In this document: positions 2,445 through 21,982 of the stretch, piece by piece
How the letters are laid out: each line of letters opens with the position of its first letter
Position numbering within the stretch: position 1 is the stretch's first letter
DNA from: an uncultured Candidatus Peribacteria bacterium
Lineage (GTDB): Bacteria; Patescibacteriota; Gracilibacteria; Peribacterales; Peribacteraceae
Reading direction: 5' to 3'
DNA length: 32,583 nt
NCBI GenBank assembly: GCA_964373225.1
Contig: CAYJTW010000001.1
Location: 1 to 32,583, forward strand
The notes under the pieces: model-generated
What the model was told of the DNA's origin: nothing
Databases searched by the model: none
The model's input: the letters and a program-made list of their open reading frames with translations, nothing else
Position numbers and translations under genes: made by a program

Positions 2445-4448
2445 ATGCATCCGGATAGAAAATCCATCATGAGATCCAACTCTCCATCTCCGGCACACGG
2501 ATCCGAGCATCTGCTCCGGCAGGCGGCATCGAATCTCACGCCGGACGCCGGCGCGCAAGCGCGCGTCAAGCGCATGATCCTCGCCCAACTCCGTGCTCCG
2601 CATCTGCTCAATCAGGTTCGCGAGGGACTGACGCCGTCGTCGGGACTCATCAAGGATCTATGGTCGCGCATTCTCTCGTCGATTGATCCGATCAGGCACC
2701 TCACGCTCTGGGAGCGTCTTCGCGAACATCTGAAGCCGGCTGCCGGAGCACGTGAACTTCTGTGGAGCAGATTCTCCGTCCGCCTCGAGCCGTCCTACGC
2801 GCGATATGCGGCGTCCGGTCCGGTCAAATGGGTCGCGGCATGCGCCATTGTTCTTGTTGCCGCCCGCGTGAGTCCGCTGCTCTTCCTCGCGCCCGCGTCC
2901 ATCGCGGAATCCCCGGTGACGCTCTTTGCGCGCGAAGGGCGGGTGGAAGTGCTTCTCGGATCGCTGTGGCAGCCGATCACCGGTGAAGTTTCCCTCAATT
3001 CCCCGACCCGCTTGCAAACCCAGAATGGCAAGGCGACGATCGTCACGCACGATGACGCGGTGTTCCGTTTTGCGCCCTACACGCGGGGCCAGCTGGTTGA
3101 TCTTTCCGACCGTCCGCAGTTCTCGGTGCAGGAGACGACGGTGGCGCTCGAAGAGGGAGAACTGTGGGTCCTCGGGCTTGTTCCCAAGCAGGTGCGCGCG
3201 ATCACGGTTCTCACCTCGCAGGGGCGCGTGTTCATCCACGAAGGCAGCGTTTCCATACAACAATCCCCCAGGAAAGTGGTGATTCGCGTGCTCGACCGCA
3301 GCGCCGTCGTGTCGCGTCACGGTCACCGGATATCGCTCGTCGCCGGAGAACAAACCGTGCTCAGCGGCGAGAATGAACCCGTTGCGACAAAAATGGATTC
3401 ATCGGTCTTCCAGGAGGCCTGGGTGGCCGGCAACCTCAGCCGCGACGCGGCCCACCAGCGCGAGATCGCACAGCTGCAGCAGGAGCGCCGCGCCGGAGCC
3501 GCCGGAATTTTGCCCGGTTCGCGCTTCTATCCTGTGAAGCGTCTGGCCGAAACGGTCGATGTGCTCTTCTCTCTCAGCGAAGAGGAACGCGCGCGTAAAC
3601 TCATCACGCAGGCCAACACGCGCCTCAACGAAGCCGCCGCGATGATTTCCAGTGGAGGGACGCAGGCCGCGGAGAATGCATTGCAAGAGTACAAGGATAC
3701 GCTCCTCCAGGTGGCCAGCGGCTCGGGAGGAAGTCCCGTTGTCCAATTACTGCTGCAGACGGAAGTCGTCGATGCCGGACCGGCCACGGTAGCCGCGGCG
3801 CTGCCGGGCGACCCGGGCTACGCACTCAAGCTGGCGGTCGATGACACCATCGCCGCACTGCCCGATACCGTCACGAAGCCCGATGTGGAAGGCGAGGCTC
3901 TCATTGACCAGTTGATCGTGGCCAAGCGCCAGGCGGAGCAGGGCGATACGCAGCTGGCGATGGAGACACTCTCCGGACTCCGCGATTCCATCGCGTCGCT
4001 GGACTCAACGGGCGCCCTCAATCTCGTGGCGGCCGATGTCCGGCATGAAGCCAAAGCAGTCGTGCAACAAGTGGCGGCTGCGGTCCAGGGTCCGGTGCTC
4101 GGCATCGGACTCGCGCTCGGCGTCCCCGAAAAAGATCTGGTGCTCCCGCAGCATCCCTCGCGCACGCTCCTCATCCGCCCGCTCACGCCCGAGCAGGTCA
4201 CCGCCAAGGCGCAGGAGATCCGTGGGCGCATCTTCGTCTACGGCACCAAGAAGGCCAGGTACGACGCTCTCGAAGACCGGATGCGGCTCCTGCTGAACCA
4301 TCCCGACCGCGGTCGCATTCTCCGCGAACTCGGCAAGTCTCTCCCGCGCGACGGGCTTGCGCAGCGCGTTACCCGCGAGATCCGGACGGTGACCGAGGAG
4401 GTGCGGCTGCAAGTCACAGCGAGCGGGGGAACGGCTGCAGCTCAATGA
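2445..4448 (+). CDS. Single-pass membrane protein, probable anti-sigma factor (FecR-like beta-rich domain plus long helical C-terminal domain)
   Basis: Immediately downstream of the ECF sigma gene. One TM segment (VKWVAACAIVLVAARVSPLLFLAPA). The extracytoplasmic beta-rich segment resembles FecR, and the helical part FYPVKRLAETVDVLFSLSEEERARKLI resembles DUF5667-type domains (recalled from memory). Confidence 0.6.
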   Translation: MHPDRKSIMRSNSPSPAHGSEHLLRQAASNLTPDAGAQARVKRMILAQLRAPHLLNQVREGLTPSSGLIKDLWSRILSSIDPIRHLTLWERLREHLKPAAGARELLWSRFSVRLEPSYARYAASGPVKWVAACAIVLVAARVSPLLFLAPASIAESPVTLFAREGRVEVLLGSLWQPITGEVSLNSPTRLQTQNGKATIVTHDDAVFRFAPYTRGQLVDLSDRPQFSVQETTVALEEGELWVLGLVPKQVRAITVLTSQGRVFIHEGSVSIQQSPRKVVIRVLDRSAVVSRHGHRISLVAGEQTVLSGENEPVATKMDSSVFQEAWVAGNLSRDAAHQREIAQLQQERRAGAAGILPGSRFYPVKRLAETVDVLFSLSEEERARKLITQANTRLNEAAAMISSGGTQAAENALQEYKDTLLQVASGSGGSPVVQLLLQTEVVDAGPATVAAALPGDPGYALKLAVDDTIAALPDTVTKPDVEGEALIDQLIVAKRQAEQGDTQLAMETLSGLRDSIASLDSTGALNLVAADVRHEAKAVVQQVAAAVQGPVLGIGLALGVPEKDLVLPQHPSRTLLIRPLTPEQVTAKAQEIRGRIFVYGTKKARYDALEDRMRLLLNHPDRGRILRELGKSLPRDGLAQRVTREIRTVTEEVRLQVTASGGTAAAQ

Positions 4449-14784: not shown

Positions 14785-15531
14785 ATGACTAAAGATCTCA
14801 TTCGCGTCCTCTCCTCCGCCGGACTCACCGACGCGCAAGCGCAGCTCTACTACGCCGGTCTCAAACTGGCATCGGCTCCAGCGTCCGACTATGCCAAAAA
14901 GACCGGCTTCAACCGGATCACCGCGTACAACATGCTGGAGGAAATGGTCCGGCAGGGGCGGTTCACTCTCGTGAAGAAAACCCGTGGCAAGTGGTATTCG
15001 CCGATTGCTCCCGAGTATCTGGCGGTGGATGCGCGCAAGAATGCCGACGCACTGGAGCGCAGTCTTCCCGAACTCCGTTCTCTGCAGGGGCCGAAGGAGC
15101 GAAAACCGCGTGTCCGGTTCTTTGAGGGATGGGACGGTGTGCGGCGCGTGTACGAGGAGACACTCACCGCGCATGGGGAGATCCTGAACTTCGCCAACTC
15201 CGCGGTCGTCCGCAAATACTGGCCCGCCTACGACGAAGAGTACGTCGCCGAGCGGGTGAGGCGAGGAGTCCACCTGCGCGGCATCGCTCCCGATGATGAG
15301 ACGGGCAGGCGCGTGCACGGCGAAGACCGCAAGAAACTCCGCGAGATCCGCCTGGTCCCCGCCAGGGATTTCGACTTCACCAACGAGATCAACATCTACG
15401 ATCACAAAGTCGCGATCTGCTCCTTCGCCAGCTCACCGCAGATGTTCGGAGTGATCATTGAGAGCAGAGAAGTAGCGGAGACGCAGCGGCAGATTTTTGA
15501 GATGGCTTGGCGGTTCGCAGCCAAGCCATGA
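14785..15531 (+). CDS. TrmB-family HTH transcriptional regulator
   Basis: N-terminal w[53 protein letters not shown], typical of the TrmB N-terminal domain, plus a TrmB-like C-terminal domain. Confidence 0.75.
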
Positions 15532-15589
15532 CCTTGTAATCCCGAGTAGCTCCGAAGGAGCGTATCGAGGGGTGAGATGGCTTGGCGGT
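15498..15589 (+). promoter_or_regulatory. 17-nt perfect direct repeat (TGAGATGGCTTGGCGGT, two copies) with a 10-bp hairpin on the first copy, plus a GCTCCGAAGGAGC mini-hairpin, upstream of thyA
   Basis: Repeat copies at 15498-15514 and 15573-15589. Hairpin ATGGCTTGGC (15502-15511) with GCCAAGCCAT (15520-15529) spans the regulator stop codon. GAA-loop hairpin at 15549-15561. Confidence 0.6.
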
Positions 15590-15625
15590 ATGCGGGACGG
15601 AAATAGCCCGCTATACTTCCTTCCC

Positions 15626-16453
15626 ATGCGCCAGTACATCGACCTCCTCCGTCATATTCTCGACCACGGCGTCAAAAAAGACGATCGGACGGGGGTCGGA
15701 ACTCTCAGTACGTTCGGCAACCAGATGCGGTTCAATCTGCAGGACGGCTTTCCGCTCCTCACGACCAAGAAGCTCCACACACGGTCGATCTTCCACGAAC
15801 TCCTGTGGTTCCTCAAAGGCGATACAAATATCAAGTATCTCCACGACAATCAGGTGACGATCTGGGACGAGTGGGCGGATAAAGACGGCAATCTTGGGCC
15901 GGTGTACGGAAAGCAATGGAGGAAATGGGAGGGGGCGGATGGGAAGGTCTACGATCAGATTGCGTGGGTGATCAACGAGATCAAGACGAATCCAAACTCC
16001 CGCCGCCTGATCGTCAACGCCTGGAACGTCGCGGATGTATCCAAAATGGCACTGCCGCCGTGTCATGTATTGTTTCAATTCTATGTTTCACCACCTGACG
16101 CGGGCAGAATGCCCGCTTCCTCATCCGGGAAATTGAGTTGCATGTTGTACCAGCGCAGCTGCGATGTCTTCCTCGGCGTTCCCTTCAATATCGCCTCGTA
16201 CGCGCTCCTCACGCATATGATCGCGCAGGTCTGCGATCTTCAAGTCGGCGAGTTTGTCCACACGCTCGGCGACACGCACCTGTACCTCAATCATTTGGAT
16301 CAGGCGAAGGAGCAGCTGAGCCGCGAACCGCGCTCACTTCCTCAGTTGAAACTCAATCCGACGGTCAAAAACATCGATGACTTCAAATTCGAGGATATTG
16401 AAATTGTCGGCTATGACCCCCATCCTGCGATTAAAGCTCCGATAGCGGTGTAA
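15626..16453 (+). CDS. thyA: Thymidylate synthase (ThyA type)
   Basis: [65 protein letters not shown]. Start taken at the ATG at 15626. Confidence 0.95.
16100..16116. repeat. REP hairpin GCGGGCA-GAA-TGCCCGC, in-frame inside thyA
   Basis: 15 of 17 positions match the RAYT-flanking REP GCGGGCC-GAA-GGCCCGC. The two differences are a compensatory C:G to A:T change in the stem. Confidence 0.8.
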
Positions 16454-18078: not shown

Positions 18079-18621
18079 TCACGATCGAATGAGTGTCATG
18101 AACTCCTCCCGCGTCTTCGGATCTTCTTTAAACAGCCCTTGGACCGTGCTCGTCACGGCCGTCGAATGCTGCTTCTGCACGCCGCGCATCATCATGCAGA
18201 GGTGGCTGCATTCGATGACGACGCCGATGCCTTTCGGTTTGAGGATTTTCTCCAATGCATCGCAGATCTGCTGGCCCATCCGTTCCTGCACCTGGAGCCG
18301 GCGCGCGTACATATCGACGATGCGGGGGATTTTGCTGAGGCCGATCACGTGCTTGCGTGGGATGTAGCCCACATGCACTTTGCCGAAGAAGGGGAGCAGG
18401 TGGTGTTCGCAGAGGGAATAGACTTCAATATCCTTCACGATGACCATGCCCTCAGTATCCACGGGCATCAGCGCATTGTTGACGATCTTTTCCAGATTCT
18501 GGTCGTAGCCGGATGTCAAAAACTCATATGCCTCGCGCACGCGGCGCGGTGTTCCCTTCAGACCCGGGCGCTTGGGGTCTTCGCCGAGGGCTTCGATAAA
18601 CTTCTGGATGAGGGCGTCCAT
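18079..18621 (-). CDS. folE: GTP cyclohydrolase I
   Basis: [54 protein letters not shown]. Confidence 0.95.
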
Positions 18622-18664
18622 GGGACGAGCAGTATGCCTTGTTTCCCGCTCTGCGCGAATACCA

Positions 18665-19258
18665 TTAGAGACGAACGATCAGTTTGTTCGCCTTTTGATC
18701 GAGCGTTTTGTCCAATAATTCTTTCCAGGTCTTCCCGATGACCGGATGGATACCGGTCGGATCAAGGAGTTCGATCAGTGGTTCCAGGACGAACCGGCGT
18801 TCATGCATGCGCGGATGCGGGACAACGAGTGGGTAGTGAGTAGTGGGTAGTGAGTAGCCACCAACGGAGTCTCCATAGAGCAAGAGGTCCAAATCGATCG
18901 TCCGCGGGCCGAAGCGGAACGGAGGATTCTTCTTCAAATGCCGTTCAATGTGGGTCAAAAATTCATAGATCTCATCGGGAGTCAGATCGGCATCGAGCCT
19001 GGCGACGGCATTGAGGAAGTCATCCTGTTCCTCGTGATGGAGCGGCGCGCTGCGGTAGACGGAGGAGAAGCGGATGGCAGGGTGGCGCTTGCGGAGCATC
19101 GTCGCAGCGGCCTTCAGATTATCCTCCGGGTCGATGTTACTGCCGAGGGCGATGAAAATTAAGGGCACAAAGGAGGCAAAAGAGACAAAAGAGGCAAAGG
19201 GGATGTCATTGTGATCGCCTGACGGTGAGTGCGACGCAGCCGGATTCCGGAATCGCAT
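18665..19258 (-). CDS. folK: 2-amino-4-hydroxy-6-hydroxymethyldihydropteridine pyrophosphokinase (HPPK)
   Basis: [39 protein letters not shown]. The ATG at 19258 overlaps folB by 53 nt. An alternative GTG at 19168 sits immediately before the conserved IALGSN. Confidence 0.85.
18827..18857. repeat. Heptamer tandem array (GAGT GGGTAGT GAGTAGT GGGTAGT GAGTAG), in-frame inside folK
   Basis: Read directly. Encodes [10 protein letters not shown] just before the conserved VPHPRM motif. Confidence 0.85.
19164..19205. repeat. Roughly 9-nt tandem array (GGCACAAAGGA GGCAAAAGA GACAAAAGA GGCAAAGGGGA) at the folB/folK junction
   Basis: Read directly. Lies between the folB stop (19206) and the alternative folK GTG (19168). 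It translates as [11 protein letters not shown] if the long folK start is used. Confidence 0.8.
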
Positions 19259-19556
19259 ATTTCTTCACCGTGACGGTCACTCCAGACGCTCCGTGCTTCT
19301 TGAGTATTATCTGCGCAGCGTCCTCGGCAAATCGTTCTATGGTCTTACGTTCAGTCAACGCAAGTTTCTTCAGATCTTCCGTCACATCGAAGTAGTTGAT
19401 CGATTTCTTGACGTCATCGGTCTTCGCGGCGGCTTTGATATCAAGAGTCATCTCCACGGTGACGAGCAAGCGTTGCTCAGTTTTGCGTTCCTCGGCGGAG
19501 ACGCCGATACGGGTCCAGAGCTCGAGGTCGGTGATGGTGAGCAGATCATGAGACAT
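19206..19556 (-). CDS. folB: Dihydroneopterin aldolase
   Basis: ITDLELWTRIGVSAEERKTEQRLLVTVEM...INYFDV, about 116 aa, directly upstream of folK. Confidence 0.85.
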   Translation of the reverse strand: MSHDLLTITDLELWTRIGVSAEERKTEQRLLVTVEMTLDIKAAAKTDDVKKSINYFDVTEDLKKLALTERKTIERFAEDAAQIILKKHGASGVTVTVKKYAIPESGCVALTVRRSQ

Positions 19557-21982
19557 TATTCATGATGCAGTGTCTTCACTCCAAACAATTCGGGCCTCTC
19601 CGCGAGTGGCGTTTCCGCCAGTCTTCTCAGGAGCCATCGGGTGACGGTGACCGCCGTGAAGAGCGAGAGGAGCACGCCCATGCCGAGGGTGACCGCGAAG
19701 CCGCGGACGATGGAGGATCCGGCCATGAAGAGAATCGTGCAGGTGATGAGGGTCGCGATATTGCCGTCCCGGATGGCCGGCCACGCGTGTTTGAAGCTGC
19801 TTTCGATGGCGGTCTTCACAAGTTTGCCTTTGCGGATTTCTTCCTTCATCCGTTCGAACACGAGCACGTTGGCATCCACGGCCATACCGATGCTCAGGAT
19901 GATACCGGCCATGCCCGCGAGCGTGAGAACGATGTAGTTGCCGGTGAAGAGGAGCAGCGGGAGTTTGAGAATTGCAAAGAGGAGGAGGGCGTAGAAGCCG
20001 AGCGCGAGATCGGCCATCACGCCGAGGATCCGGTACACGACGATCATGTAGAGCATCAGGATGATTGTGCCGAGCAGCGCTGCGAGGAGCGACGTGTGGA
20101 GGGCCGCGGCGCCGAGCGTGGCTTCCACCGTGTACTGCCCCACCAGATAGATGGGCGCCGGGATGGCGCCGGTGTTGAGGTCCTGGGCGAGTTTGCGCGC
20201 TTCGTTAAAATCTCCGCTGCCGGTGATGACGGCGATGCCTCCGGCGATCTCCTGCTGCACGCGCGGGGCCGAGATCATCTCGCCACCGACGAAGATCGCG
20301 ATCTGCTTGCCGACGTTGCGCTTGGTGAGTTCCTGGAAGAGCTTGCCGCCCTCGGCATCGAAGATGATCTGCACCACCGGAATATTCGTGACTGAATCGG
20401 CCGTCACGTTCGCGGCCCGGAAATGTTTACCGTCCAGCGCGGTGTCCTTCCATCCCGTCGGTTCGAGCGAGAAGAAGAGAAGGCGCAGGGTGATGGCGGA
20501 CTCGCGCGATGTCACCTGTCCCGTCTGGAGACGCAGAGCGATGTCGGTGGCGCGCTTCCCGGCGTCCACGCCGGAAATGATCAGCTCGTCGTAGGTCGCG
20601 GTATCGGGCGTCGCGGTCACGGCTTTGTCGAGACGGATGATGTGGTAGCCGAACTGTGTTTCGACGATGCCGGTGATCTCGCCGGGCTTCTTGAGAGCAA
20701 AGACAGCTTCTTCAAACGCGGGAGCCATCACGCCGCGGCCGAAAGAGCCGAGGCTGCCACCATCACTCTTCGACGGGCCGTCGGACTGCGTCCTGGCCAG
20801 CTGCGTGAAGCTGGCGCCGCGGTCGAGACTGGCCTTGAGCGTGGCGGCTTTCTGCAACGCCTGTTCCTTTGTTCTGGTGACTGGGGTCTCTGCACCCGTC
20901 GCCCCCGCGTAACTGACCAGAATATGACTCGCGGCAATTTGCTCCCCGCCGCGGACGAAGGCATTCAAAAAGACGATGCGCGAGGTCGCATCGGTCTGGA
21001 CCTGCCTGAGCGTCCCCGGCTGGGCGCTCCGCAGTGCCGCGGCGACGCGTGCGTCAACGTTGGCATCGACCGGCGCCTTCTCGTGATGCACAGTCGTGGT
21101 TGTTGCTTCGGTCTTCGCGAGGAGCGCGAATGCCCTGGTCGCTTCGCTCACGATACGACCGGTCTCGGTGGGTCCGCGCAGGACTTCGGCCAGAAAGACT
21201 CCGGGAACCTGCTGCCCGGTCTCACTGCCGTCGGCATTTTGTTTCGGCTGCGCGATGCCCCCCTCGCGGAGGACCACGTTGCCCGGTTGCATCGTCCAGA
21301 GATCCTCAAGACCTTTGGGAACCTGGTCACGGAACAGCGTCTTCTGCGGCTGGAACGCCACGCCGAGCTCGCTGCCCATATCCTGGCCTTCCTTCACCAG
21401 CGTCGAACCACTCTGGGCGATCCGCCGGAGCGTCGCCTGCGCCTTTTGCCGGACCCCCCTGGTGAATTCGGCGGTCACTTCGGTGAACGGCTCTTTAAAT
21501 TCCAGCTGGATGGTTTTGCCGACGACTGCAATGCACTCCTGTACGTCGACAACGCCGGGGCATTCCACGAGCAGGTGGCGCTCATTACCGACGTATGACG
21601 GCGTGATGGTCGCTTCGCTGACGCCCAGCGAATTGATGCGGCGTTCGAGAACGGTGCGGATGGCCTCGACGAGATTTGCCTGCTGTTCGGTGATGCTCTG
21701 CTTCTGCGCGCGTGCGAGGTTCACATCCTGCGCGGACGCGCCGCTCTTTTCCAGGCGCGCGATTTCGGCGTTGATATCGTCGAGCTGGGTAGAGATCTCT
21801 TCCTCCGAAATACGAAAGTCGAGCTGCGTTCCTCCGGCCAGGTCCAGTCCCAAGTGGAGCGCGGGGTTCCGGAGGAATCCCGGCGCCCAGGATTTCCACT
21901 GTTGCGGCGCCACGATGAAGACTGCGAACATGCCGATGGCGGCAACGACGAGGGGCCAGGTGAGGGAACGCTTTTGGGTCAT
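19556..21982 (-). CDS. secD: Protein translocase subunit SecD with an embedded parvulin (PpiC-type) PPIase domain
   Basis: N-terminal TM plus LGLDLAGGTQLDF, RRINSLGVSEATI, P1 head GKQIAIFVGGEMISAPRVQQEIAGGIAVITG, and a C-terminal 5-TM bundle (MAVDANVLVFERMKEE). Residues about 347-455 read ASHILV...GGSLGSFGRGVMAPAFEEAVF...FGYHIIRL. Confidence 0.9.
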   Translation of the reverse strand: MTQKRSLTWPLVVAAIGMFAVFIVAPQQWKSWAPGFLRNPALHLGLDLAGGTQLDFRISEEEISTQLDDINAEIARLEKSGASAQDVNLARAQKQSITEQQANLVEAIRTVLERRINSLGVSEATITPSYVGNERHLLVECPGVVDVQECIAVVGKTIQLEFKEPFTEVTAEFTRGVRQKAQATLRRIAQSGSTLVKEGQDMGSELGVAFQPQKTLFRDQVPKGLEDLWTMQPGNVVLREGGIAQPKQNADGSETGQQVPGVFLAEVLRGPTETGRIVSEATRAFALLAKTEATTTTVHHEKAPVDANVDARVAAALRSAQPGTLRQVQTDATSRIVFLNAFVRGGEQIAASHILVSYAGATGAETPVTRTKEQALQKAATLKASLDRGASFTQLARTQSDGPSKSDGGSLGSFGRGVMAPAFEEAVFALKKPGEITGIVETQFGYHIIRLDKAVTATPDTATYDELIISGVDAGKRATDIALRLQTGQVTSRESAITLRLLFFSLEPTGWKDTALDGKHFRAANVTADSVTNIPVVQIIFDAEGGKLFQELTKRNVGKQIAIFVGGEMISAPRVQQEIAGGIAVITGSGDFNEARKLAQDLNTGAIPAPIYLVGQYTVEATLGAAALHTSLLAALLGTIILMLYMIVVYRILGVMADLALGFYALLLFAILKLPLLLFTGNYIVLTLAGMAGIILSIGMAVDANVLVFERMKEEIRKGKLVKTAIESSFKHAWPAIRDGNIATLITCTILFMAGSSIVRGFAVTLGMGVLLSLFTAVTVTRWLLRRLAETPLAERPELFGVKTLHHE

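Follow-up and report, generated by a model that had tools for sequence, protein, structure and literature searches.

SecD and SecF act as a pair driven by the proton-motive force (PMF), in which, as SecDF structures indicate, the P1 head, which swings on the hinge between P1 base and head, binds the unfolded chain as it emerges. How SecDF handles substrates outside the membrane, and how a chain is handed over from translocation to folding, are still debated, and the evidence that connects translocons with foldases is recent and derives from non-covalent complexes. The closest precedents for the arrangement described below are of this kind, that is, PpiD–YfgM with SecYEG and the PrsA-like dome around SecDF of Mycoplasma. 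A 2025 preprint on Mycoplasma pneumoniae shows SecYEG–SecDF as an integral component of a dome formed by PrsA-like lipoproteins with PpiC domains, and contacts of PpiD/YfgM and SurA with the translocon are cited in the same work (10.1101/2025.04.25.650208). Here we analyse a 32,583-nucleotide stretch of an uncultured Candidatus Peribacteria bacterium (contig CAYJTW010000001.1; the whole stretch is referred to as the window) and its secD gene, which encodes a parvulin-type peptidyl-prolyl isomerase (PPIase) domain within the extracytoplasmic P1 region. Both parts are well known, and it is their covalent arrangement that is previously undescribed; we found no paper in the full-text literature that describes a SecD–parvulin fusion, and the databases name such proteins simply SecD.

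The window SecD is a genuine SecD (that is, a PMF-driven accessory subunit of the Sec translocon) with a parvulin module inserted into P1. A previous reading of the DNA made from the letters alone (the sequence-only reading) had proposed this architecture in a single uninterrupted open reading frame (ORF) of 808 amino acids, and the ORF list bears this out at 19556..21982 on the minus strand. The residues that it assigned to the parvulin (347–455) correspond exactly to nucleotides 20944..20618, and all of the motifs that it quoted for SecD and parvulin (LGLDLAGG, RRINSLGVSEATI, GKQIAIFVGGEMISAPRV..GGIAVITG and TQFGYHII) were found. Profile searches against the Rotamase and SecD families returned a highly significant Rotamase match and the domain order that had been claimed (in Pfam terms, SecD_1st, Rotamase, SecDF_P1_head and SecD_SecF_C). 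The features of the gene are as follows, with true residue numbers throughout (the numbering of the 64-homologue alignment used below is the true residue minus 1).

19556..21982, minus strand: secD ORF, 808 amino acids, stop codon included (ORF list, Pfam, NCBIfam and phmmer against the PDB).
21896..21970, minus strand: TM1, the N-terminal membrane anchor, residues 5–29 (Kyte–Doolittle hydropathy; helix 7–23 in the AlphaFold2 (AF2) model; topology by homology to SecD structures).
21491..21667, minus strand: SecD_1st, the N-terminal part of the P1 base, residues 106–164 (Pfam PF21760, E 3e-12).
20945..21490, minus strand: insert segment A, conserved alpha/beta, residues 165–346 (AF2 and homologue alignment).
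20627..20944, minus strand: parvulin (PpiC-type) PPIase domain, residues 347–452 (Pfam, phmmer against the PDB, AF2/Foldseek and conservation).
20450..20626, minus strand: insert segment B, a strand, a helix and a long strand that runs into the P1 head, residues 453–511 (AF2: strand 460–468, helix 473–485, strand 490–504).
20156..20449, minus strand: P1 head subdomain, residues 512–609 (Pfam PF22599, E 3.8e-26, profile positions 17–114; aligns with Thermus 3aqo and 3aqp).
19628..20134, minus strand: SecD C-terminal transmembrane domain, residues 617–785 (Pfam PF02355 (SecD_SecF_C), E 1.3e-07, and MMPL; TIGR00916; aligns with Thermus SecDF 176–429).

The assignment to SecD is supported at several levels. 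The product exceeds the Pfam gathering score for each of PF21760, PF22599 and PF02355, scores 315.4 bits against the NCBIfam secD model TIGR01129 (cutoff 244.4) and 187.5 bits against TIGR00916 (cutoff 148.6), and retrieves Thermus thermophilus SecDF (3aqp, E 1.3e-56) and Escherichia coli SecD (5mg3_D, E 1.4e-43) from the PDB. Hydropathy, the AF2 model and alignment to 3aqp and 5mg3 agree on the topology of SecD, that is, one N-terminal transmembrane helix, a large extracytoplasmic P1 region and five C-terminal transmembrane helices with the conserved Asp of TM4; the N-terminal helix and the C-terminal bundle (approximately residues 623–781 by hydropathy, with AF2 helices in agreement) had both been recognized in the sequence-only reading. 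By homology to this topology, residues 30–615 or so are extracytoplasmic, which places the parvulin, with an intact signature, on the outer side of the membrane as had been claimed. As the proton-path residue Asp703 (GMAVDANVL; core AVDANV) is invariant in 64 aligned homologues, the transporter part of the protein looks functional. The P1-base segment (residues 106–164), which aligns with residues 59–136 of Thermus SecDF and 225–297 of E. coli SecD, is 90% conserved in the family, and an invariant A-I-P-A-P-I closes the P1 head.

The embedded domain is, as judged from its predicted structure, a parvulin fold of the Pin1 type (that is, a four-stranded sheet wrapped by helices). Pfam Rotamase_3 (PF13616) matches residues 347–451 (E 3e-26; 92.7 bits, cutoff 22.5) and Rotamase (PF00639) matches residues 353–452 (E 1.4e-23; 84.1 bits, cutoff 21.7), and a phmmer search of the PDB returned Pin1At (1j6y) at 1e-15, followed by PrsA, Ess1, Par10 and SurA. 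In Foldseek, the predicted domain, which has a predicted local distance difference test (pLDDT) of 84–93, superposes on Pin1 PPIase domains with a root-mean-square deviation (RMSD) of 1.4–1.6 Å over 111 residues and a TM-score of 0.87–0.88. Alignment to Pin1At, PrsA1 and Par10 places the catalytic residues and the Met/Phe proline pocket at His353, Asp401, Met419, Phe423, Thr442 and His447, and across the 64 homologues these are 95–100% conserved where counted (His353, Asp401 and Thr442 in 62 each, Phe423 in 61 and His447 in 63), with Gly445 invariant in all 64. The position of the catalytic Cys of Pin1 and Par10 is taken by Gly402, which adjoins the PrsA/SurA-type Asp401. In the alignment with Pin1At, Ser357, Thr362 and Gly363 stand at the places of K63, R68 and R69, the residues that bind phosphate in Pin1, and no conserved Arg-Arg pair occurs in the columns of the 64-sequence alignment that were tabulated for this region (residues 359 and 363); because this basic triad is replaced, the parvulin would be general rather than phospho-specific. 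A Pin1-type phospho-specific enzyme was accordingly considered and rejected, the triad being missing. On the basis of these residues, we predict that the domain is catalytically competent.

The parvulin of about 110 residues that the sequence-only reading placed in P1 is real, but the insertion as a whole is considerably larger and lies in the connector between base and head. Residues 105–179 and 533–792 of the window SecD align with residues 59–136 and 176–429 of Thermus SecDF (3aqp, phmmer alignment), and residues 96–171 and 511–786 align with 225–297 and 323–609 of E. coli SecD (5mg3_D); from these alignments the insertion is estimated at approximately 340 residues (about 172–511), compared with the 26–40 residues that Thermus and E. 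coli have there. It follows the base strand of P1 (TIQLEFKE) and precedes the first head strands, and the parvulin (approximately 105 residues) forms its middle third, between segments A and B. Both segments are free of gaps across the 64 homologues and are about as conserved as the parvulin itself. The AF2 model of the whole protein has a mean pLDDT of 78 (80–93 in the insert) and a predicted TM-score (pTM) of 0.44; segment A itself reaches a pLDDT of 80–90 there, compared with 86.9 when modelled alone. Segment A has more strands in the full model than on its own, and as the extra strands vanish when it is modelled alone, the models suggest that segments A and B jointly form a scaffold in which the parvulin nests. 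Foldseek with the full SecD model matched SecDF and parvulins only, and PrsA and SurA chains gave a meaningful RMSD over the parvulin alone.

Attempts to assign segments A and B to a known family returned nothing firm. A Pfam scan at E ≤ 10 of segment A (165–346) and segment B (extended to 453–530) gave no credible match (only a chance MurT_C at 0.18), and Foldseek found no match to the segment A model in the PDB with E < 0.3. An hhalign test for internal duplication, in which segment A was paired in turn with the P1 head, the P1 base and segment B, and the P1 base also with segment B, detected none (all probabilities <4%). We also considered segment A as a degenerate first parvulin; hhalign took the expected register, but at E 0.16 the candidate is statistically unsupported and was set aside.

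The fusion is not a peculiarity of one contig. The sequence-only reading understated its spread, as the fusion is widespread in bacteria of the candidate phyla radiation (CPR): a search for the same architecture in related genomes, which that reading had proposed, found it in hundreds of homologues from independent assemblies, among them 120 or more close and 75 or more distant representatives. All of the 120 best homologues (57–90% identity, 797–859 amino acids) carry Rotamase together with SecD domains, those that are named being "SecD" of Candidatus Peregrinibacteria, Peribacteria or Peribacteraceae, and their assemblies come from NCBI, JGI, ENA and Logan and include contigs of >1 Mb. The published complete Peribacteria genome has the same architecture in an 813-amino-acid secD product. 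An HMMER search for distant relatives that covered all of 1.84 billion cluster representatives (50% identity) recovered many full-length ones at 38–46% identity; in local phmmer comparisons, 75 of the 150 best representatives have the parvulin between P1 base and head. Ten distant representatives were confirmed by Pfam, and the representatives range in size from 586 (short form) to 1119 amino acids. A scan of a sample of GTDB species genomes, with a DNA pattern for the parvulin motif alone, found parvulin and P1 head in one frame, among the matches listed, in Peregrinibacteria, Uhrbacteria, Komeilibacteria, Moranbacteria, Parcubacteria, one "Patescibacteria group" genome and one metagenome-assembled genome labelled Bdellovibrionales; five of these loci (L006, L007, L008, L013 and L023) were confirmed by Pfam, and L005 and L009 were assigned by ORF reading. 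As far as sequence goes, then, the parvulin–SecD design is common to many CPR bacteria and is lineage-wide rather than a one-off.

Several variants of the design were seen along the way. Short-form CPR SecDs of approximately 560–590 amino acids (L007 5515–7215, L008 5545–7257, L009 5491–7179, L013 5554–7266 and L023 757–2520; also proteins P0177 and P0203) have a Pfam parvulin match that begins at profile position 8–14, with no His-bearing beta1 strand before helix alpha1, and carry instead an A(R/S)HILI strand after the GYHII strand, just ahead of the P1 head. Judged by sequence and alignment, these proteins appear to contain a circularly permuted parvulin. In the window SecD, the segment B strand ITLRLLFFS (residues 497–505) aligns with this trailing His strand. 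A 673-amino-acid SecD of Candidatus Uhrbacteria UBA9568 (L006 5230–7248) has two consecutive parvulin-like units (two Pfam Rotamase stretches), of which the first is degenerate, and this tandem form could stand, in evolution, between the permuted short and the nested long forms. P0121 (Peribacterales, 1119 amino acids) and P0203 (905 amino acids) are single-chain SecD(parvulin)–SecF fusions, with which several representatives of 1015–1099 amino acids (for example, P0131, P0139 and P0143) are listed. The contig labelled uncultured Bdellovibrionales (L013, CAZTYU010000004.1; GC content 0.56) encodes a short form that is 54% identical to Moranbacteria and Parcubacteria proteins, and could be a mis-binned CPR contig or the result of horizontal transfer outside the CPR.

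The 32.6-kb window contains no other ORF that resembles SecD, SecF or a parvulin (phmmer on all six-frame ORFs; Pfam on long ORFs), so that the statement of the sequence-only reading that no secF follows secD holds. A secF usually adjoins secD or is fused to it. The search for secF elsewhere, which that reading had also called for, located it in relatives, and in one complete genome it is unlinked to secD. The SecF half of P0121, used as a query, retrieved SecF proteins of approximately 300 amino acids that are named as Peribacteria and Peregrinibacteria, and one secF of the lineage adjoins the genes for trigger factor and RelA. In the complete Peribacteria genome RIFOXYC2_FULL_PER-ii_58_32, secF (gene _705) is followed by tig and lies 86 kb from secD (gene _786, 813 amino acids) (PMC4736985, supplement 2). 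On a Peribacteria-like contig (L085), a 319-amino-acid ORF without a Pfam match (3026–3985) ends 16 nucleotides before secF, and the PER-ii genome has a 470-amino-acid hypothetical gene at the position before secF; the ORF before secF might be a further lineage-specific Sec accessory.

The KEGG Orthology (KO) table of the same complete genome holds no K07533 (prsA), K03769 (ppiC) or K03771 (surA), and for ppiD it gives a single hit, of 11 bits where the threshold is 127; it also lists a cyclophilin and trigger factor (PMC4736985, supplement 2). By KO annotation, the SecD-embedded domain is thus the only parvulin in this genome. Peribacteria are reported to export many large cysteine-rich surface proteins and to carry sortase A, which is described in that study as a Gram-positive enzyme (PMC4736985). 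Published gene content suggests that the CPR envelope is of the Gram-positive type, with no outer membrane.

Taking these observations together, we consider it probable that the parvulin is a membrane-tethered, PrsA-like foldase built into SecD that folds proteins at the exit of the export channel. In this scheme, SecD and the separately encoded SecF would pair beside SecYEG, and the P1 head would capture the unfolded chain as it emerges from the channel. The parvulin, held covalently at the hinge between base and head, would bind the same chain and isomerize its Xaa-Pro bonds, and segments A and B could possibly add holdase activity. The module would thereby take the role of the lipid-anchored PrsA of monoderms or the transmembrane-anchored PpiD of E. 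coli, with the SecD tether replacing the lipid or transmembrane anchor, so that a foldase would be co-localized with the exit site at a ratio of 1:1 in CPR bacteria with small genomes. The case for such a coupling of translocation and folding is strengthened by the conservation of the catalytic residues, by the Pin1-like modelled fold, by the lack of prsA, ppiC and surA in the complete Peribacteria KO table, and by the existence of a non-covalent assembly of SecDF with PrsA-like proteins in Mycoplasma (10.1101/2025.04.25.650208).

A number of points weigh against this proposal. Asp401 is placed as the catalytic acid by a PrsA/SurA-style alignment, and a Gly (Gly402) occupies the Cys position; two thirds of the insertion (that is, segments A and B) is without an assignable function; and activity and function are, for every member of the family, derived from sequence and models. 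Moreover, the inter-domain geometry of the AF2 model, which would decide whether the active site of the parvulin faces the SecY exit or the groove of the P1 head, is unreliable at a pTM of 0.44. The lack of a stand-alone PrsA comes from the KO-based table of one relative rather than from the window's own genome, and CPR classes are stated to encode PrsA on the basis of annotation (PMC9166423, its Supplementary Table S5), a statement that the domain embedded in SecD may or may not underlie.

Three other explanations were weighed. The parvulin may serve purely as a chaperone or substrate clamp that widens the grip of the P1 head on unfolded chains, in the manner of SurA P1, PpiD and PrsA variants with a dispensable PPIase activity; prolyl isomerization would be irrelevant. 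The parvulin of PpiD is inactive and the chaperone functions of PrsA and SurA are largely independent of PPIase activity, the nesting between segments A and B is reminiscent of the parvulin of PrsA and SurA within its chaperone scaffold, and the first His is lost in some short-form relatives (for example, ARQIVI in P0177). We nevertheless regard a pure clamp, the main rival, as unlikely: conservation of 95–100% at His353, Asp401, Phe423, Thr442 and His447 in the Peregrinibacteria family would be unexpected for a mere binding surface, and segments A and B show no resemblance in Pfam or Foldseek to the chaperone domains of SurA, PrsA or trigger factor.

Considerably less probable, in our view, is a regulator in cis, in which SecD itself would be the substrate or docking partner of the parvulin (for example, through the invariant Pro-rich TGAIPAPI after the P1 head) or the parvulin would form a strut in the hinge that tunes the swing between F-form and I-form. 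Such a role would be in keeping with an insertion placed exactly in the base-to-head connector, which is the hinge region in the Thermus SecDF structures, and with the invariant end of the P1 head; however, motifs like AIPAPI also occur in SecDs without a parvulin (LPVPL in Thermus and LIAPI in E. coli), it would be unusual for an enzyme to be dedicated to a single bond within its own chain, and we know of no precedent for a parvulin that regulates SecD in cis. An artefact, in which genes for a PrsA-like foldase and SecD were joined by mis-assembly, frameshift or a chimeric contig, has nothing more in its favour than how rare such an architecture is among textbook organisms and can be dismissed with near certainty, as the parvulin is internal and in frame with SecD P1 segments on both sides and the same architecture is seen again in independent assemblies, with 120 or more close and 75 or more distant representatives, and in a published complete genome.

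Directly upstream of secD lies a second gene with a connection to P1:

21979..22644, minus strand: lipoprotein (MKRLLGILTLTLLLTAC...) of approximately 220 amino acids with a SecD P1-head-like domain (Pfam and hhalign).

This protein has a lipobox (LLLTAC) and resembles a copy of the SecD P1 region without the membrane domain. Its match to Pfam SecDF_P1_head (8e-5) is under the cutoff, and when four orthologues were aligned by hhalign to the SecD family, residues 113–213 of the lipoprotein paired with residues 508–606 of SecD (the P1 head) at 97.4% probability and E 1.4e-11; its N-terminal part is similar to the base motif ERRV..G. To our knowledge, no stand-alone P1-only paralogue of SecD has been described. 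Orthologues lie directly upstream of secD in every relative examined (L001 9218–9931, L003 9302–9967 and L086 3284–3976), and in the complete PER-ii genome the 220-amino-acid gene _785 before secD is entered in the 2016 genome table as a "hypothetical protein" with a weak SecD KO hit (PMC4736985, supplement 2). The lipoprotein is probably a partner or accessory of the window SecD.

All relatives examined keep the order NTP-transferase, protein of approximately 220–250 amino acids and secD; in the window and two of the three relatives, folB-folK-folE comes next, either at once or separated from secD by one or two small ORFs. The stop codon of the lipoprotein gene overlaps the start of secD (ATGA) and the stop codon of secD overlaps the start of folB by 1 nucleotide (TAATG), and these overlaps suggest that the lipoprotein gene, secD and the fol genes form one transcription unit. 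The genes folB, folK and folE, with thyA, glnA and an ammonium transporter nearby (18079..19556, minus strand; 15497..16453, plus strand), are an ordinary housekeeping context, and as this context is syntenic with Peribacteria contigs it supports the assignment of the window to Peribacteria. Elsewhere in the window, a 667-amino-acid ORF (2445..4448, plus strand) has DUF5667 as its sole match (E 3e-18).

Combining the gene neighbourhood and the variants with the proposed PrsA-like foldase, a broader scenario can be envisioned, which we would call possible rather than probable. P1 head and parvulin would form a PMF-powered pull-and-fold machine in which the swinging head feeds chains to an active isomerase at the hinge; in most CPR/Patescibacteria, this machine would be both the ancestral extracytoplasmic parvulin foldase and the sole one, and would stand in for PrsA; the permuted short, tandem (Uhrbacteria) and nested long (Peregrinibacteria) forms would record its evolution; and the P1-only lipoprotein would provide an extra arm for holding substrates.

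A natural in-frame fusion of an apparently active parvulin with the hinge of SecD P1 is "Rosetta-stone" evidence, which points to a shared substrate and a shared place of action for SecD and PrsA-type foldases, and it offers one polypeptide in which the coupling of pulling to folding can be studied by structure and biochemistry. The fusion may also explain how tiny, probably monoderm cells that export many large cysteine-rich surface proteins (PMC4736985) cope without a recognizable PrsA. For annotation, the label "SecD" alone means that KO-based surveys may miss the foldase or miscount it as PrsA. We see the parvulin–SecD as a useful natural experiment for Sec specialists rather than as a shock, to which its breadth in the CPR and its internal variants add value.

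How the window SecD relates to described systems can be set out by its parts. With canonical SecD and SecDF (T. thermophilus SecDF, 3AQP and 5YHF; E. coli SecD, 5MG3) it shares TM1, the P1 base, the P1 head and the five-helix bundle with its conserved Asp, a score above the TIGR01129 cutoff, a separate SecF partner in its lineage and, presumably, PMF-driven pulling of substrates; it differs in the approximately 340 extra residues with the parvulin, in a secF that is unlinked in a relative's complete genome and in the extra P1-like lipoprotein gene upstream. With the Pin1 and Par10 domains the parvulin shares the Pin1 fold (modelled, at the RMSD given above), the TQFGYHII strand (as in Par10) and a long beta1–alpha1 loop with TRTKE (as in Pin1), whereas it lacks the basic triad of Pin1, has Gly at the position of Cys113/Cys40 next to an Asp like that of PrsA and SurA, and is extracytoplasmic and part of a membrane protein.

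PrsA of Bacillota (4WO7, 5HTF and 6VJ4) is likewise an extracytoplasmic, membrane-tethered parvulin with the His/Asp/His set, nested between flanking segments and expected to act on proteins that leave SecYEG in an organism without an outer membrane. The window SecD, by comparison, has no lipobox (its N terminus is the TM1 of SecD) and no helical NC (trigger-factor/SurA-like) chaperone domain, and its anchor is SecD. It scores 57.1 bits against the PrsA model NF002827 (cutoff 343) and 47.5 bits against NF002846 (cutoff 361), with the parvulin alone aligning in both; the NCBIfam PpiC model is likewise matched by the parvulin stretch alone, far under its cutoff. No SurA_N-family match was found in the window SecD by Pfam, and the SurA equivalog gives 32.6 bits against 394. 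With low equivalog scores and neither a lipobox nor a chaperone domain of these types, classification of the protein as PrsA, PpiD or SurA was rejected, although in function it would come nearest to PrsA and PpiD.

PpiD–YfgM, at the lateral gate and exit of E. coli SecYEG, has in common with the window SecD that a membrane-anchored parvulin factor at the translocon receives emerging chains; PpiD is a separate polypeptide with an inactive parvulin and a SurA-like chaperone domain, whereas the window SecD keeps the catalytic residues and carries the domain within SecD. The dome of M. pneumoniae (Mdp436/444/489) is the closest functional precedent: there, too, SecDF is physically coupled to foldases with PpiC domains in a genome-reduced bacterium without an outer membrane. 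The dome is non-covalent, is built from three large lipoproteins and is restricted to Mycoplasma, whereas the CPR proteins carry their foldase in frame within the P1 region of SecD.

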